Source of the DNA: Promethearchaeia archaeon
GTDB lineage: Archaea; Asgardarchaeota; Lokiarchaeia; Sigyniarchaeales; SOKP01
Direction: 5' to 3'
DNA length: 64,000 nucleotides
NCBI GenBank assembly: GCA_029856125.1
Contig: JAHQWJ010000107.1
Coordinates: forward strand, 1 to 64,000
The translations under genes were made by a program, and so were the position numbers. Every line of letters starts with the position of its first letter. Position 1 is the first letter of the stretch. Shown piece by piece: positions 2,400-12,861 of the stretch. The notes under the pieces are model-generated. The model saw only the letters and a list, made by a program, of their open reading frames with translations, searched no databases and was not told where the DNA came from.

Positions 2400-3539
2400 T
2401 TACGTTTTTCCTAATTCCATTTGACTAATCGCTTTCCCAGACCTGAACGGTATATCGTCTAGACTCTCACCTGCGCTATAACCAAATTTTTCCTTAAAGG
2501 AATCGTTTAACGATTGGAAGTAAAGTGATAGTGGAAGATGTTGTGGGCAATTATTATCACAATTACCACATTCTATGCACCGGTCTGCGACATGAGCAAT
2601 CCTTGTTAATTGATAAGATTCCTTATTGATAATCTTTTCCTTCCGCTTTTTCATTAGAATGCAATCAACGCAGTAACACACAGGACATCCACGAATGCAC
2701 ATATTACACATTGTACATTTTTGGAACCTTTCCAATTTATCTTCCTGAGAAAGCTTGTCCCATTCTTCTAAATCCTTTGCTCTCTTTGCTAAAGCAGTAT
2801 CTTTGATTTTTCTAAGAGTTTCGGTGTGTTTTGTTCTCAAATCCTCAGGTAAGGTTTTTTTGTTGATCTTTGATTTTTCTACGAGATCTGCACCTTTATC
2901 TGAATATACTATTAGGAGAATTTCGTCTGAATCAATAGGTAATACCAGATCGCTAACACTGATATCAGCAACAACGGGGACTTTTCTGATACAACGCGTA
3001 CAATTCTCTGCTATATCTAATCCAACTTCTTTAGTGCTACCATCTTCAAATTTAAGAATTAATCCATTATCGCCGACTTTTTCTTTAACTACTTTAGTTA
3101 AATCGAGTCCTTCTACTTTCTTCAATTGACGCGAAACATTTATTACCATCCCTCTATCCTCAAAGCCAACAACGAAAAGATTATCCATGTTAATCTGTCT
3201 AATCTTTGCTAACTCAATTATTCCGCGAGTATCACAGGGACGAGCAATAACTCCGACTTTTTCGTTCTTAGCCCCATCAACTGATTTATGTAAGAATTTC
3301 GCAGCCGTATCCGTTCTAGCGTATCCATATGCAATTAAATTTGTTAAAGGAAAAGTTGTAAGGTCTTCTGGTTTTTCAACAATTACTGGAGATACAGTAA
3401 ATCTATCTATAGCCCCAGATTTCTTATCTACTTTCAATTTTGCTCCAATAATCTTATCTACGAATTTTTCTTGCAAGAGCGTCGCTAATAGCTTAGGAAA
3501 ATCTTCAATCTTAATTAAATATTCATCTAATGCATCCAT
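2400..3539 (-). CDS. fdhB: FdhB-like (F420-binding FrhB/FdhB family) flavo-iron-sulfur subunit
   Basis: RPCDTRGIIELAKIRQINMDN, CTRC, CTMCNMCIRGCPVCYCVDC, RCIECGNCDNNCP match the FdhB layout. Confidence 0.75.
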   Translation of the reverse strand: MDALDEYLIKIEDFPKLLATLLQEKFVDKIIGAKLKVDKKSGAIDRFTVSPVIVEKPEDLTTFPLTNLIAYGYARTDTAAKFLHKSVDGAKNEKVGVIARPCDTRGIIELAKIRQINMDNLFVVGFEDRGMVINVSRQLKKVEGLDLTKVVKEKVGDNGLILKFEDGSTKEVGLDIAENCTRCIRKVPVVADISVSDLVLPIDSDEILLIVYSDKGADLVEKSKINKKTLPEDLRTKHTETLRKIKDTALAKRAKDLEEWDKLSQEDKLERFQKCTMCNMCIRGCPVCYCVDCILMKKRKEKIINKESYQLTRIAHVADRCIECGNCDNNCPQHLPLSLYFQSLNDSFKEKFGYSAGESLDDIPFRSGKAISQMELGKT

Positions 3540-3638
3540 GTTATTTCAACTCAAATTAATAAAGACTTTTTTTCAATTTTTTTTTTAATTATTTTTTAAT
3601 TATTTTTTACATAACTATTACTTTTTAAATTTTTTTTT

Positions 3639-3712
3639 ATGTGTTATATGGTGCTCCCATATCTTCAGCTGAGTTCTCATTTTTTTTAACTCAGCCTCAT
3701 TAGCTAACACAT
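3639..3712 (-). promoter_or_regulatory. Eukaryote-like SECIS element 1 (3' of mvhD; likely serves hdrA and mvhD)
   Basis: Minus strand: AUGUGUU-AGCUA-AUGA-G-GCUGAGUU-[AAAAAAAAUGAG]-AACUCAGC-U-GA-AG-AUAUGG-GAGCA-CCAUAU-AACACAU; perfect 8-bp upper helix and 7-bp lower helix, starting immediately after the mvhD stop. Confidence 0.9.
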
Positions 3713-4147
3713 TTATTTTTTTGAGGAGTTATTATTTTTTTTCCGTAATGGGCTCGGTCCAAGTTTCCGTATTTCTTCATCAAAAGAAGTTGCTACTTTT
3801 CGATATTTCGAACCTTCCGCTGAACTGCAATATTCCATTTTTAATCTTTTTGGGTTAAGTCCAACGGCTTTAACCACTTCTTTTATATAAGCAATTGACC
3901 TATGTGCAAAATAGTTACCTTTTTCATAATCACATTCTCCAGGATATCATCCAACAACGAGTATTCCGTCAGCACCTCTCCCAAAACTTCTCATAATTAC
4001 ATCCGCACCAACTCTTCCTGTACATGGAACTAACACGGTTCTTAAAGATATGGGGTATTGAGCTCTAATAGTTCCCGCCATATCAGCTGCACCATAGCCT
4101 CATTTTAAACATAAAAAGGATAGAATTTTAATATCGTCGTCTCTCAT
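3713..4147 (-). CDS. mvhD: MvhD/VhuD [2Fe-2S] subunit, selenoprotein with 2 Sec (U16, U67), 144 aa; missing from ORF track
   Basis: MRDDDIKILSFLCLK-U-GYGAADMAGTIRAQYP...VPCTGRV...GADGILVVG-U-YPGECDYEKGN...SSAEG...LGPSPL; TGA at 4100-4102 and 3947-3949 occupy conserved MvhD Cys positions; TAA stop at 3713-3715. Confidence 0.93.
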
Positions 4148-4160
4148 TTTAATTTCCTCT

Positions 4161-6122
4161 TTAATCTTCTATTGGCAATAATTCGTCAATATAAACTGAA
4201 TATTGAACGTCTTTGTAATGCGCTAAATCTATTGCTTTAGAAGGGCATATTGCAGTGCAAATTCCACAACCTCTGCAACTTATTACATCTACAACAATCT
4301 TTCCTTCATCATTAATAGAAATTGCATTGTATGGACAAGCATCAATACATTTATAGCATTTTGCACATCTTTCGTCTATTGGTTGGGCGCGTATTAATTC
4401 AATAATGTATTCTCCCTGTCCCATTGGAATGCCTGCTGAAGATGCTGCTCCTTTAGCCTGGCTTACAGTAAGTTCAATAGACTTCTGACCTTGACAAGAA
4501 CCTGCTAAATAGATACCTGGAACCTTAGTTTTGATTGGTTCTAGACGCGGATGAACTTCTTTTAGAAACCCATCTGATGATTTTTCGATATTCATTATAG
4601 CAGCAATTTCATTTGTGCCTTGAGATGGTAGTGATGCCGATGACAAAACAACCATATGAACTTCCATTTTTACTAGCGTATCAGTCCCAACAGGTTCAAA
4701 TTGAACGATAAGATTCTTTGTTAAAGGGTCTTCTTCTATTTTTCCTATCATCCCTTTAACAAAAAGAATTCCTGCATCTCTGGCTCTTTTGTAATACTCT
4801 TCATACATCTTCCCCGCACATCTCATATCTATATAACATACTGTAATTTCGGAATCGGGATATTCAGAGATTATAAGTTTGGAATTCTTAACAGATAAAT
4901 TACAGCAAACTACGCTACAATATGCATTCTTTTTTATATCTCTTGATCCTACGCAGTTAATGAATAATATTTTCTTTGGACGTTTTCTATCTGAGGGGCG
5001 TACCAAATGACCGAACATAGGACCATTTGGAGCAAGGATTCTTTCTAGTTGGATTTGTGTGATTACATTCTCGTATTTCCCGTACCCATAATCGTCTTCT
5101 TGATATATGTCCCACCCTGTTGCCACAATTATTGTTCCTATTTCAAGTTCTACTATTTCATCTTGTTGGCTAAAGTCAATTGCTTCCAAATCACAAGACT
5201 CGACACATGCAAAACATTCTACACACGATTCCCTTACAATATCATAAACTGCCGGAACTGCTTGAGCAAATGAAATATCGATGCACTTACGAGCTGACAG
5301 ATTTTCATCAAAATAATTAGGAACATATATAGGACATACTTCCGTACATGCACCACAGCCAGTACATTCGCTTTCAATGACAAATCGAGCTTTTCTGTTT
5401 ACATGGGCTCTAAAGTTACCTATGTATCCTTCGACTTTTACTACTTCACTATAAGTAAGCATTTCAATATTTGGATGGCGATCAGCTTCAAGCATCTTAG
5501 GTCCGAGAATTCATATTGAACAATCATCCGTGGGGAATGTTCTATCTAACTGAGACATACGACCACCGACTGTTGTCTTCTTTTCAACTAAATAAACTTT
5601 ATATCCCGCATCTCCCAAATCAATTGCAGCACTTAAACCAGCAATCCCTCCACCAATAACCAAACAAGTAGGGTTTACATCTACTGTTTTTGTAGGTATC
5701 TCTTCTAAAAATTGCGACCTTGAAATCCCTGCTTTTACTAATTCTATTGCTTTAAGTGTAGCGTCATCTCTTACTTCCATTGCTTGATGAACGTAACTAC
5801 AATGTTCTCTAATGTTTACAAATTCCAAATATCTCTGTGGTAATCCTGCTTCTTTTAAAATAGCGTGAAATACTGGTTCATGTGTTATTGGAGTTCAAGC
5901 AGCCAAGATAATTCTGTCGAAGCCTTTTTCGTCTATTTGTTCTTTCATAAATTCAGCTCCTCCAGACGTACACAAATTTAAATACTCGTAAGCGTAAACA
6001 TCATCGAGTTTATCAATTTCTTCTACAATTTTAGGCACATCTAAAATGCCTCCAATATTAACTCCTCATCTACATATAAATGCTCCGATTTTGTGTTTAC
6101 TATTGGTCTGTTCTTCAGACAA
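4161..6122 (-). CDS. hdrA: Heterodisulfide reductase subunit A, selenoprotein with 3 Sec (U19, U76, U204), about 653 aa; joins ORFs 5511..5828 and 4161..5495 with an unannotated N-terminus
   Basis: One frame from TTG 6122 (or GTG 6131): KIGAFICR-U-GVNIGG..NLCTSGG..DRIILAA-U-TPITHEP..EFVNIREHCS..GGGIAG..TFPTDDCSI-U-ILGPKM..; TGA at 6066-6068, 5895-5897 and 5511-5513; also CVGSRD, YCSVVCC and ferredoxin motifs. Confidence 0.93.
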
Positions 6123-6378
6123 ATTTTCCACCTTTTGTATTTGTATCCTCCTAATTTTAAATGTATCTTCTTATAACGATTTTTATTAATTGTACTTGAT
6201 TAAATAAATATGATCATGCAAATGGTTCTTATTATTAAAATTCAATTATTATTAGTTTTATACCGATTATTTTTGATTTTAAGACTTTCATCATTGCTGT
6301 TATAGTTGAAAATAACCAAATCAGATTTAAATAAAATAAACATAATATAGATCATATCTTTTTAGTAGGTGAATATTC

Positions 6379-7191
6379 ATGGCAGAATCTCAAAAATCTA
6401 ATAAAAAATCAAAATACACAATTGATTCGATTCAAAGGAAAGCGTTAATTAGTAGAATATATCCTATCCTCTTGGTGGGGTCAATAGTTTGGTTGTCGGG
6501 AGAATATTTGTTTAGCTTTCTTTTCTCAGATTTGGATTTTACAGGACAAAATTTATTGTACTATGTAATCATTGTAATAGTAGAAGCGATTTTATTTATC
6601 TCGTTTTTCTTTGCCTCTAATAATAATAAAATATTATTGAGTATCTTCTTCTTTATAGCATTCAGTTTTCTTGCAGGAATTTTAAGTTTACCCGTAGTGA
6701 TCTTTACAGAATTTATACCACAAGTTCACATGCTTGTCAGTTTGTCAGTTGGTGCAAATTTTATAGTTTACTTCTTAAGTCTCTTTTTAAGGGAAAAGTA
6801 CTTTGCCAAAGGATATATTTGGACGCATATCTTATTATACCTAATTGGAGTTGCCATAGTAGAAATCATTTTTATTGTTATTTTCAATATCCAAAACTTA
6901 TTACTAACAATACCTATCTCACTGGCATACATTTTGATTGTTTCCTTAATTTTGATGTTTTGGGGCACCCGTACCATTAAAAAAACTGAAAAAGAGAATT
7001 GGATATATGCATTATTTAAAATTCTTGGAATTTTACTAATAGCGCTTGTCTTAGCTGTCGTTGTTGTAGTTATTGTACTTTTAATTATTGCACTAGCAAT
7101 TATATCTGAAGGAAATTTTGATTTGAGCGGGATAGGTTCTGGAGGGGGTGGAGGAATTGGAAGTAAAAAGAAGAAGCAACAGCAAATCTAA
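6379..7191 (+). CDS. Polytopic membrane protein, possibly Bax inhibitor-1/YccA-like fold
   Basis: About 7 hydrophobic segments; Gly-rich and Lys-rich C-terminus; GGTGA RBS upstream. Family call is tentative. Confidence 0.45.
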   Translation: MAESQKSNKKSKYTIDSIQRKALISRIYPILLVGSIVWLSGEYLFSFLFSDLDFTGQNLLYYVIIVIVEAILFISFFFASNNNKILLSIFFFIAFSFLAGILSLPVVIFTEFIPQVHMLVSLSVGANFIVYFLSLFLREKYFAKGYIWTHILLYLIGVAIVEIIFIVIFNIQNLLLTIPISLAYILIVSLILMFWGTRTIKKTEKENWIYALFKILGILLIALVLAVVVVVIVLLIIALAIISEGNFDLSGIGSGGGGGIGSKKKKQQQI

Positions 7192-9775: not shown

Positions 9776-10098
9776 TAATTTTAATTTTTGATTTTTTTAG
9801 TATAGAGAATTAATACTTAATATAAAAAATTACCATTTATTAGGTTATTTGTTAATGTAAACAACCTCTATCCTAATCTACCCAAAATTAAAACCAAAAT
9901 TAAGAATTTGATTTCCCTCTTCTCAAAATCTTCCCTAAATAAAATTCCGAAATGGCTTCTTTAAACATTCTGATTTATTGATTTTATCTCAACTTATGTA
10001 ATTTTCTAGTCCAAAATGCTTTTTAACAATAATAATAGCATATTTAAAGTGGTTTAGATTATATTTAACAACAGTATAAAGACCGTAATGTGATTCAT

Positions 10099-12861
10099 AT
10101 GACTGTAACTACAGATAAAAATGTAAGTAAGAAAAATGACAGAATACTTTCAAGTGACATCATTAAAAATGTTATTGCGAACGCAAATTACTGCTATAAT
10201 TGTAACCGTTGCGTTAATGTGTGCCCTGTCTCTTACTTAGATTTGTTTTACCCGAGAAATTTAATTACTGATTTAACTTTTTTATCTCCAGAGGAAGCAT
10301 TACAAAATAATAATATTTGGGATTGCCTAACCTGTGGGTTGTGCACCGAATATTGTCCAATGACTAAAGATAAGGTTGGAGTAAATTTTACAGAAATTAT
10401 TAAGGAACTCAGAGCATTAACTTCGGAATACGAGCCTTTACAAGAGACTTTACGAAGCTGTAATCACGATCGCGTTTATTCAAGTATACCAAAATTAATG
10501 GCAGACGATAAGATTAAATTTACCAATAAACTTGGATTTTTAGAAGGTACTGGATTAAAAATAAAAAGCGAAGGGGAACTCGCTTACTTTATGGGTTGTG
10601 TACCGTTTTTAACTGGAACGGCGCCTTGCGTCGTAGGATGTCCGGCAGGAGTAGATGTTCAAGGATATGTGTCCTTAATCTCCGAAGGAAAATTTCAAGA
10701 ATCTATCGACTTAATAAGAGAAATGAACCCCTTACCTTATTTATGTGGAAGAATTTGCACAGCTCAGTGTGCTTTGAATTGTAATCGTCAACATCACGAT
10801 GATCCCGTAGCAATCCGAGAGTTAAAACGTTTCGTATCTGATTATGAAGCTGCACATCCAAATAAGAGTAAAATAAAACCAGTTAAACAAACCAAAGAAA
10901 AAGTAGCAATAATCGGAGCTGGTCCAGGAGGTTTATCTGCAGCTTACTACCTCGCAAGATTGGGGTACAAACCAACAATTTTCGAGAAAGGTGATAAAAC
11001 CGGTGGAGTCGTAAGATATGGTGTCCCTCAATATAGGCTTTCTGACGAGGCGTTAGACCACGATGTAGAATTTATAAAAAATATGGGCGTTGAAATCGTA
11101 CTCAACAAGGAGTTTGGTGCAAATTTTACTCTTGAAGATCTTAAAGAAGAAGAGTTCAAAGCAACATTTATTGCGGTAGGTCTGTATGTCCCAAAAACTT
11201 TGCGACTTGAAGGTGAAGATTTGCCTAACGTTCATGTTGCTATAGATTTTCTCTTGGATCGGAAATATGGTTGCGCAGAAGACCCCGAAGAATTTAAAGG
11301 TAAAAATTTTGGAATTATTGGGGGCGGAGCAGTCGCTGTTGATGTAGGCGAAACTGCTGTGAGATTAGGTGCTACGAAAGCTGATTTCGTAGACATATTA
11401 ACGGAGGAAGCGCTTAAAAATGTGCTGAAAGATTTGCACGAAGCCGAAAGAGAAGTAATGGAATATCATTTTACTACTTCAACAAAAAACATAACCCAAG
11501 AACCCAATGGAAAATTAGCCTTAAATTGTTATAAAATTGAATGGGGTGAACCTGATCCTGAAACGGGAAGAAGACCTTTGAATAAAGTGGAAGGTTCTGA
11601 TTATAAAATCGTTGTTGATCATGTAGTCACTGCTATCGGGCAAGGACTTGACGTAGTCCCTATTAATGCTGCAACTGAAAACAAGTTAAAAATTGATCGA
11701 GGCAGAATTATAGTTGATCAAGTAACTTTTGAAACTAACATTCCCGGCGTTTTTGCTGGTGGAGACATCATTAATGATTCACTTATGTGTGCCGTTGATG
11801 CTATCGGAAATGGTAGAGAAGCTGCATATTCAATCGATCGCTTCTTCCGTGGAATTGATTTAAAAGATGGTAGGATTATAAAGAAAGAATTGAAGCGTTC
11901 TACTATCCCTAAAAAATACATTCAAGTAAATTCTTGCCAAGAAATGAATTTCATACCCGGAGAAGAAAGATTGGTATGTTTTGATGAAATGGAGTTAGGA
12001 TATACCGAAGAACAAGCAATAAAGGAGGCAAATCGTTGCTTAAATTGTAATTGTTGTAGTAATAGCGATCAAATCCCTGAAGATTATAACGCAGCTTTAG
12101 ATTCCTCGGGAGTAATGATTGCAAACTATGGGAACCAAGCTAACATGCATTCTTATAACTCTCCAGATTATTTAACTATCCCTAAGAGTGTAATTGGAAT
12201 CCTAAATCAAAACGATATTGTGCCAGTTGTTTTACCTGAAGAAAAATGTTGTGGTCACGATATAATATGGCAAGGCGATACGGAGTCCTTTGAGAAGTTA
12301 GCGAGGTATAATGTCAAGTTGTTTAAAGACTCTGGTGTAAAAACAATTGTATTCAGCTGCCCTGAAGGGTATTATACTTGGAAAAACGAGTATAAAAAAC
12401 TGTTTAAAAAAGGGGAAGATTTCGATTTTGAGATTTATCACATTTCAGAATATATCTTGAAAGAAAATCTTCTAGAGGATATAACTTTTCCAAACTTGGG
12501 AGATGTTAAGGTTACTTATCATGATCCTTGTAGACTAGGTAGAATGAGTAATGTTTATGACGCTCCTCGTGAAGTATTGAATAAAATCCCGGGCATAAAA
12601 CTCCTTGAAATGGAAAATAATAGGGTAGACGCTGATTGTTGTGGTGTTTCGGCCTACATTTCATGCAACCAAAATTCCAAACTACTACAAGAATCAAGAA
12701 TAAAACAAGCAATTGAAACTGGAGCGGAATATTTAATTACTACTTGCCCGAAGTGTTTAACGCATTTTAACTGCTATTTGAATGAAAATAAGGAACTTAA
12801 GAACAAAATTCAAGTAATAGACCTACTAACTTTTATGGGTAAAATGCTTTTTATGCAGTAA
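10099..12861 (+). CDS. HdrD-like protein (HdrC-type 2x[4Fe-4S] plus CCG domains) with an inserted GltD/NfnB-like FAD/NAD(P) module
   Basis: CYNCNRCVNVCP and CLTCGLCTEYCP; YFMGC; then APCVVGCPAG..CGRICTAQCALNC..GAGPGG..GGGAVA..FAGGD..EANRCLNC; then EKCCG, FSCPEG, YHDPCRLGR, CCG, CPKC. ATG 10099 follows a GTGAT RBS (track start is GTG 10090). Confidence 0.8.
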   Translation: MTVTTDKNVSKKNDRILSSDIIKNVIANANYCYNCNRCVNVCPVSYLDLFYPRNLITDLTFLSPEEALQNNNIWDCLTCGLCTEYCPMTKDKVGVNFTEIIKELRALTSEYEPLQETLRSCNHDRVYSSIPKLMADDKIKFTNKLGFLEGTGLKIKSEGELAYFMGCVPFLTGTAPCVVGCPAGVDVQGYVSLISEGKFQESIDLIREMNPLPYLCGRICTAQCALNCNRQHHDDPVAIRELKRFVSDYEAAHPNKSKIKPVKQTKEKVAIIGAGPGGLSAAYYLARLGYKPTIFEKGDKTGGVVRYGVPQYRLSDEALDHDVEFIKNMGVEIVLNKEFGANFTLEDLKEEEFKATFIAVGLYVPKTLRLEGEDLPNVHVAIDFLLDRKYGCAEDPEEFKGKNFGIIGGGAVAVDVGETAVRLGATKADFVDILTEEALKNVLKDLHEAEREVMEYHFTTSTKNITQEPNGKLALNCYKIEWGEPDPETGRRPLNKVEGSDYKIVVDHVVTAIGQGLDVVPINAATENKLKIDRGRIIVDQVTFETNIPGVFAGGDIINDSLMCAVDAIGNGREAAYSIDRFFRGIDLKDGRIIKKELKRSTIPKKYIQVNSCQEMNFIPGEERLVCFDEMELGYTEEQAIKEANRCLNCNCCSNSDQIPEDYNAALDSSGVMIANYGNQANMHSYNSPDYLTIPKSVIGILNQNDIVPVVLPEEKCCGHDIIWQGDTESFEKLARYNVKLFKDSGVKTIVFSCPEGYYTWKNEYKKLFKKGEDFDFEIYHISEYILKENLLEDITFPNLGDVKVTYHDPCRLGRMSNVYDAPREVLNKIPGIKLLEMENNRVDADCCGVSAYISCNQNSKLLQESRIKQAIETGAEYLITTCPKCLTHFNCYLNENKELKNKIQVIDLLTFMGKMLFMQ

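Follow-up and report, generated by a model that had tools for sequence, protein, structure and literature searches.

A Lokiarchaeial hdrA gene with three in-frame UGA codons on conserved cysteine positions and a single SECIS behind the adjoining vhuD

Selenocysteine in HdrA and VhuD proteins

Mariotti et al. (2016, PMC4989117) reported HdrA proteins with multiple selenocysteines (Sec) from Lokiarchaeota. These have up to four Sec at five positions, their genes are in tandem with vhuD, and both genes share one Sec insertion sequence (SECIS) element, the lokiSECIS. It was proposed that the UGAs of such HdrA-VhuD pairs are decoded from one mRNA, and the hdrA genes of these pairs stop with UAA or UAG, never with UGA (PMC4989117). 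A later catalogue by Huang et al. (2024, PMC11227280) contains 1439 Asgard selenoproteins, of which HdrA and FrhD/VhuD are the most numerous. Here, an hdrA gene with three in-frame TGA codons is described that lies on a stretch of 64,000 nucleotides from a Promethearchaeia archaeon (assembly GCA_029856125.1, contig JAHQWJ010000107.1, positions 1 to 64,000; referred to as the window). The gene was first noticed in a prediction made from the letters of the window without database searches, and this original prediction is compared with the results below.

The Lokiarchaeota HdrA.1-4/VhuD.1-4 proteins and those of the window have in common the Sec near residue 200 and extra Sec on conserved Cys columns. 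In both cases vhuD follows directly after hdrA on the same strand and includes two Sec, a single SECIS (AUGA, 9-bp stem, A-rich loop, GA) is found only after vhuD, hdrA ends with a stop other than UGA (TAA at 4163-4161 in the window), and the host is an Asgard/Loki archaeon. When the comparison is made on these features of the pair, nothing essential differs; the apical loop of the window SECIS is 12 nt long, versus 11 nt reported for the lokiSECIS and found in most copies. The finding is real, but the gene type is already known, and the original prediction overestimated the novelty of what had been published in 2016 (PMC4989117). The addition is only modest: with the help of later structures, the extra Sec sites can be mapped onto the domain of the shuttle cluster and onto the Cys/Sec pair where this domain docks.

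In Methanococcales (M. maripaludis, PDB entry 9sfi, PMC13518236; M. jannaschii), HdrA shares the fold, the cofactor motifs and the C-x-x-U site (Sec197) with the window protein and is about 50% similar to it along its whole length, and VhuD has the same two Sec sites. These proteins have one Sec in HdrA whereas the window protein has three, and their SECIS is of the archaeal type with a GAA bulge whereas that of the window is of the Loki type. Methanococcal HdrA acts together with HdrBC on CoM-S-S-CoB in a methanogen; in the window there is no adjoining hdrBC, and an FrhB-like neighbour is kept instead. HdrA proteins with Cys only, as in M. thermolithotrophicus (5odc), M. marburgensis (8rvu) and M. 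hungatei (7bkb), match over the full length at E 1e-173 to 1e-194 and have Cys at all three positions where the window has Sec. As a bacterial example, BamE/BamF of the Geobacter class II benzoyl-CoA reductase (BCRII) contain a bifurcating module of the HdrA type together with an adaptor resembling MvhD, and the BamF adaptor has Sec19 at the position of VhuD U16, beside a Cys-x-x-Cys pair near the flavin adenine dinucleotide (FAD) (bioRxiv 10.64898/2026.04.10.717634). Unlike the window, this system has a fused double HdrA, and no Sec is reported in its HdrA-like subunit.

The hdrA reading frame and its TGA codons

The hdrA gene (4161..6122, minus strand) is read from 6122 down to 4161 and has 653 codons with a TTG start and a TAA stop; AGGTGG lies 8 nt upstream of the TTG. 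All positions given for hdrA, vhuD and their SECIS are likewise for the minus strand. In the translation of 6122..4161 the sole stops are three TGA, at codons 19 (6066..6068), 76 (5895..5897) and 204 (5511..5513), while the plus strand of the same interval has stops throughout and no coding frame. The original prediction had placed an HdrA gene at these coordinates, with a frame of about 653 codons and TGAs at ICR-U-GVN, LAA-U-TP and DCSI-U-ILGP. This description is correct, except that the minus strand, the vhuD gene and the SECIS had been overlooked. It had also been stated that ORF (open reading frame) callers split the frame, and calling with translation table 11 does break it into a 444-aa (amino acid) ORF, a 105-aa ORF and shorter pieces. 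Mis-splitting of hdrA by standard ORF callers is an annotation issue.

The identification as HdrA was confirmed by phmmer searches of the read-through product against the PDB, which gave HdrA chains 9sfi_A of M. maripaludis (E 3.5e-202, residues 9-649) and 5odc_A of Methanothermococcus thermolithotrophicus (E 2.7e-194, full length). Pfam matches include Pyr_redox_2/NAD_binding_8 (the FAD/NAD(P) Rossmann fold) at 153-200 as well as Fer4 domains. The protein has the FAD-binding Rossmann motif, four ferredoxin-type Cys motifs and the cluster Cys of the TrxR domain including the CC pair, and the cluster Cys are kept at 253/256/259/263, 300/303/306/310, 390/402/406/407, 586-596 and 616-626. The equivalog cut-offs of NCBIfam are not reached (HdrA2, 735.8 bits vs 1100; HdrA, 616.5 vs 1400), for models that have about 770 positions and include a fused MvhD part. 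Judged by its sequence, the window protein is a member of the HdrA family and not the methanogen equivalog.

All three TGAs are found on Cys positions that are conserved in HdrA, as had been predicted. In the alignment with Cys-containing homologs, the two sites in the N-terminal domain, Sec19 (C17-R-U19-G) and Sec76 (A-A-U-T-P), align to Cys13 and Cys71 of 5odc_A, and Sec204 (D-C201-S-I-U204) aligns to Cys197 of the same chain. In 9sfi_A the residue at this last position is X (Sec197), which agrees with the earlier claim that the last TGA is the Sec site of Methanococcales. With about 34 Cys columns per 653, rough arithmetic gives a chance of about 5e-6 that three random stops would all be TGA and would all fall on Cys columns.

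Conservation of the TGA sites

The sites were compared in 80 orthologous loci from public metagenome-assembled genomes with HdrA 66-96% identical to that of the window. These genomes are labelled Promethearchaeota/Promethearchaeia (including Loki_b31), with a few Hermod-, Hod- and Odinarchaeota and some with the label 'uncultured archaeon'. TGA occupies codon 19 in 79/79 of the loci and codon 204 in 80/80. The conservation in related genomes that the original prediction had called for is thus found in full at these two sites and in part at codon 76, where 15/80 orthologs have TGA and the other 65 have Cys. Every ortholog with at least 80% identity (13 in total) has Sec76, as do two distant orthologs, which makes the Cys/Sec switch at codon 76 a recurrent one. 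At codon 51, a TGA is found in 6/80 orthologs. One ortholog (L135, 3001-4941) has four Sec, at 19, 76, 204 and 253; Sec253 is found in this locus only (1/80), and its column, a ligand of the classical ferredoxin motif, corresponds to the Cys that opens the first cluster motif in the inserted ferredoxin domain.

The same genome contains five full-length HdrA paralogs with two to four TGAs and three with none, and HdrA homologs in 40 relatives of the same order carry one to five TGAs. Across these paralogs and homologs, TGA is found only in columns 19, 51, 76, 204 and 306; all aligned HdrA copies with any TGA have one in column 204. HdrA copies with Cys only are paired with VhuD copies with Cys only. 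It is worth mentioning that an HdrA paralog in a genome of the same genus (L067; G011:C5:1590-3512, minus strand) has TGA at all of 19, 51, 76, 204 and 306. With five Sec, this copy exceeds by one the maximum of four given in 2016, and column 306 is a classical CxxCxxCxxxC ferredoxin ligand.

The TGAs are present in independent assemblies as well as in orthologs, so that their absence from the underlying data, which would have spoken against the prediction, was not found. Contigs from two independent marine-sediment studies are identical to the window across the TGA sites (records 24 and 22 of X5 with 0 differences; record 8 of X1 with 1 difference, at 6143). Gaps in the cover by contigs (X15 at 5427-5600; X1 near 5500) carry no evidential weight. 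Contigs from an RNA library span hdrA, the hdrA/vhuD junction and the SECIS.

The vhuD gene and the SECIS behind it

The vhuD (mvhD) gene (3713..4147, minus strand, 144 codons) starts 13 nt after the hdrA stop and has TGAs at codon 16 (4102-4100) and codon 67 (3949-3947). Its product matches MvhD/VhuD chains of the PDB at E 9e-36 to 9e-32, and VhuD of M. maripaludis (9sfi_K) has X at the same two positions as U16 and U67 of the window VhuD.

Directly after the vhuD stop there is a SECIS of the Loki type (3639..3712, minus strand). Its lower stem is formed by 3712-3706 with 3645-3639, and its core consists of AUGA (3700-3697), a 9-bp stem (3696-3688 with 3675-3667) and GA (3666-3665); the apical loop (3687-3676) opens with eight A's. 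A side hairpin (3662-3646) with a stem of 4-6 bp and a loop of about 5 nt (GAGCA) separates the GA core from the 3' strand of the lower stem, which makes the SECIS a three-way junction. The stem of this hairpin is invariant in 47 orthologs, and the SECIS elements of paralogs have a side hairpin at the same place with a different sequence. The fold has a z-score of -4.2. The core is located 13 nt from the vhuD stop and 2.37 kb from the first UGA of hdrA. The same motif is found in the same place after vhuD in orthologs, and within this genome it stands behind 5/5 TGA-bearing hdrA-vhuD pairs and behind 0/3 Cys-only paralogs. No second SECIS motif was found elsewhere at the hdrA-vhuD locus. An Rfam scan of 3400-6400 gave no match to a SECIS family and only a chance snoRNA at E=3; Rfam has no model of the Loki-type SECIS.

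Covariation in the stem was assessed by anchored counting and with an alignment of orthologs only, since MAFFT misaligned the paralogous SECIS elements. Anchored counting over 19 distinct SECIS stems showed many double compensatory changes at stem positions 2-9. In the alignment of 47 ortholog sequences, 8/9 pairs of the main stem have changed on both sides and 95.6% of stem cells are paired, compared with 31-43% in slid controls; 0/500 shuffles match the observed score.

Sec-decoding machinery of the genome

The genome assembly comprises 3.69 Mb in 153 contigs with 32.7% GC. Going by the closest hdrA loci, the host is a Lokiarchaeial Asgard archaeon, and it lives in marine sediment. SepSecS was found at 351.7 bits, along with two SelD genes (190 and 169 bits) that have one TGA each, and PSTK at 168.9 bits over the full model, which is under the equivalog cut-off of 290.5. 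The tRNA-Sec gene (locus L005; G000:C101:1257-1406, minus strand) is located immediately upstream of SepSecS and was found via the tRNA-Sec of relatives. The Rfam tRNA-Sec model and ARAGORN, when run on the raw genome, both missed it because it is interrupted by two introns, one of 27 nt in the anticodon loop and one of 30 nt in the T-loop. Once spliced, it is called as tRNA-SeC(tca) by ARAGORN and shows an acceptor stem of 9 bp along with a long variable arm. For tRNA-Sec of Lokiarchaeota, only the T-loop intron was reported in 2016 (Mariotti et al., PMC4989117). Half of the genomes of the same genus have no Rfam tRNA-Sec match, and it is possible that introns explain these misses as well.

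Interpretation of the UGA codons and a possible role of selenium

The gene, its conserved TGA sites, the SECIS and the greater part of the machinery were observed, and from these we infer with high confidence a functional Lokiarchaeial hdrA whose three UGAs are decoded as Sec via one shared SECIS after vhuD, with Se presumably near the shuttle cluster. The product would be HdrA as a flavin- and FeS-containing electron-bifurcating subunit. UGA 19, 76 and 204 would be translated as Sec by the archaeal/eukaryal-type pathway (tRNA-Sec, PSTK, SepSecS, SelD, EFSec), and hdrA and vhuD would be co-transcribed, such that one eukaryote-like lokiSECIS after vhuD serves five UGAs over about 2.4 kb of bicistronic message. 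Position 204 is the canonical Sec/Cys site in the C-x-x-C/U pair next to the bifurcating FAD, and Sec19 and Sec76 would replace two of four invariant Cys in the MvhD-like N-terminal domain that holds the mobile 'shuttle' [4Fe-4S] cluster. Se would then be concentrated where the low-potential electron leaves the flavin, and in the docked state at least one N-terminal Sec together with Sec204 of the partner protomer may bind or touch the shuttle cluster. If true, this is a further case of Asgard archaea placing several Sec in the core of an electron-bifurcating enzyme, and of one eukaryote-like SECIS acting across two cistrons and >2 kb, which bears on the origin of eukaryotic Sec decoding.

Some observations weigh against this explanation. 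The elongation factor EFSec (aSelB) was not found in the 153 contigs, either with the selB model or by tblastn with EFSec of relatives, so that of the machinery demanded by the original prediction, tRNA-Sec, PSTK, SepSecS and SelD are present and EFSec is missing from a fragmented assembly. The contigs from the RNA library derive from relatives of 90-97% identity, possibly with DNA admixed. There is no hdrBC among the genes adjoining hdrA, and the organism is no methanogen. Finally, the N-terminal domain and VhuD resemble each other only weakly (hhalign E 0.0057; Foldseek template modelling (TM) score 0.41). With regard to EFSec, it is found at 229-247 bits in four relatives, including both same-genus genomes tested (G016 and G020; HdrA 94-96% identical), and the best tblastn matches in the present genome are EF-1alpha (29% identity) and aIF2-gamma. 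Given that even tRNA-Sec and SepSecS lie on a contig of only 3.6 kb, its absence is taken to be a gap in the assembly. A 366-aa protein (C32:34688-35788), the nearest match after those to EF-1alpha and aIF2-gamma, was considered as EFSec and rejected; it has no P-loop, and its Pfam matches are to EF-Tu domain 2 only.

As for the chemistry, Cys197, which matches U204, is described from a crystal structure as a ligand of the N-terminal [4Fe-4S] cluster of the partner protomer (PMC9012536). Mariotti et al. 2016, predating the structure, stated that the Cys at the extra Sec sites are not cluster ligands (PMC4989117). Papers based on cryo-electron microscopy (cryo-EM) treat the Cys/Sec pair (C201/U204 in the window protein) as a dynamic thiol/selenol relay, not a fixed ligand (PMC13518236, PMC13580544). 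In these structures the pair, which is Cys202/205 in M. marburgensis and includes Sec197 in M. maripaludis, is placed between the FAD and either the [2Fe-2S] cluster of MvhD or the N-terminal 'shuttle' cluster, and it either binds an unidentified ligand or makes a selenosulfide (PMC13580544, PMC13518236). The same 2026 papers name the transfer of electrons between FAD and these centres as an open question, for which natural Cys/Sec variants at these positions are a ready-made series.

HdrA's N-terminal domain has only four invariant Cys/Sec columns, namely 17, 19, 51 and 76; column 108 varies among HdrA paralogs. If three of the four columns and Cys197 of the partner (Cys197') ligate the cluster, at least one of Sec19 and Sec76 is a ligand, and at least two Se would ligate or contact the docked cluster. 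A 'Se-rich N-terminal cluster', as had been suggested in the original prediction, is plausible; the ligand assignment rests on PMC9012536 and on the count of conserved Cys. A structural model of the N-terminal domain (predicted local distance difference test score, pLDDT, 91) superposes on the N-terminal domains of solved HdrAs with TM 0.90-0.92 and a root-mean-square deviation of 1.7 A, and MvhD chains (E 7.6e-4, TM about 0.4) are among the next-best structural matches, alongside lumazine synthases.

A tentative alternative keeps the same gene and the same Sec sites and gives Sec19, and perhaps Sec76, the role of a redox selenol beside the cluster instead of that of an FeS ligand. The selenol would form a transient selenenylsulfide or diselenide with C201/U204 of the partner, and would act as a two-electron/one-electron relay or gate, similar to MvhD Cys16 and BamF Sec19. 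This is in line with a profile alignment (hhalign E 0.006, probability 6.5%) that pairs C17/U19/C51/U76 of HdrA with C13/U16/C42/U67 of VhuD and so sets U19 opposite U16. VhuD U16 in turn aligns to MvhD Cys16, which is described as an 'additional' non-ligand Cys (PMC13580544). Further, the BCRII preprint reports Sec at the matching position of BamF with a nearby Cys-Cys disulfide in state 2 (bioRxiv 10.64898/2026.04.10.717634), and a selenosulfide has been seen at Sec197 (PMC13518236). Of the four invariant Cys/Sec in the N-terminal domain, three suffice if Cys197' is the fourth ligand. However, the alignment of VhuD with the N-terminal domain is weak at the values given (E 0.063 by BLASTP), and once undocked from Cys197', a mobile cluster requires its own fourth ligand, for which residue 19 is the obvious candidate.

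One can also imagine, as an unlikely reading, that the mobile shuttle [4Fe-4S] is a mixed S/Se cluster whose fourth ligand switches between Sec19 when undocked and Sec204 of the partner when docked by the FAD, maybe via a transient Se-Se or Se-S bond. If this ligand switch is true, Se would tune or gate the low-potential branch of flavin-based electron bifurcation, and the repeated Cys/Sec switching at 51 and 76 together with hdrA-vhuD-SECIS cassettes swapped between lineages would be natural tuning experiments.

The codons could also be read as Cys, Trp or Gly through a change of the genetic code or read-through, not as Sec. This is highly improbable and was rejected, since TGA is a normal stop elsewhere in the genome, where it ends 256 of 1963 long open frames (13%) and there is thus no global code reassignment, and since tRNA-Sec(UCA), PSTK, SepSecS and SelD were all found; moreover, every in-frame TGA lies on a Cys column of a known selenoprotein family with a SECIS. 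A pseudogene, or expression of fragments only with the TGAs as real stops, would fit the split frame in standard ORF calling and the missing EFSec, but this least probable of the readings was rejected because every stop is a TGA on an invariant Cys column, these TGAs are kept in up to 80 species-level genomes (66-96% identity), the known Methanococcus Sec site is among them, the frame has no other stops or frameshifts, and the SECIS covaries.

Neighbouring genes and apparent recombination of the hdrA-vhuD pair

Downstream of hdrA-vhuD there is an FrhB/FdhB-like gene (2400..3539, minus strand) with the Pfam domain FrhB_FdhB_C, and such a gene is found downstream of the pair in 77/80 orthologous loci. 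Its product is likely a partner subunit of HdrA-VhuD, and this suggests a conserved HdrA-VhuD-FrhB-like module. Elp/Fdh modules are the analogy for its possible role as an electron-input unit linked to F420 or flavin. The further neighbours are a ferredoxin downstream, and a ferredoxin and an aldehyde:ferredoxin oxidoreductase (AOR) upstream.

The hdrA-vhuD pair looks like a recombination mosaic which has been swapped by recombination and has a history different from that of its flanks. The locus that is nearest by its flanks (L131) is 92-95% identical to the window there at the DNA level (AOR 98% and FrhB-like protein 95% at the amino acid level), whereas hdrA-vhuD is only 65-75% identical (HdrA 73% and VhuD 59% at the amino acid level), and its Sec pattern is U19/U51/U204. 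The reverse is seen in L076, with hdrA-vhuD 90-98% identical and flanks about 77%. Similarly, the closest hdrA-vhuD alleles (96%/90% at the amino acid level) are found in genomes with flanks that are only about 80% identical. The breakpoints are near 3720 and 6150-6270.

Between hdrA and the upstream ferredoxin and AOR genes lies a 270-aa ORF (6379-7191, plus strand) with no Pfam match. It is matched in only 4/80 orthologous loci and has no match in L131, the nearest by flanks, which points to an insertion at the boundary of the recombined segment.

At a distance of 4 kb from hdrA there is a gene for a 923-aa fusion protein (10090-12861, plus strand), in which a ferredoxin is combined with a GltD/NfnB-like FAD/NAD(P) domain and two CCG domains of the HdrB/HdrD type; it is followed by NfnA-like and GltD-like genes. 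This fusion is a possible disulfide-reductase partner of HdrA that replaces HdrBC.

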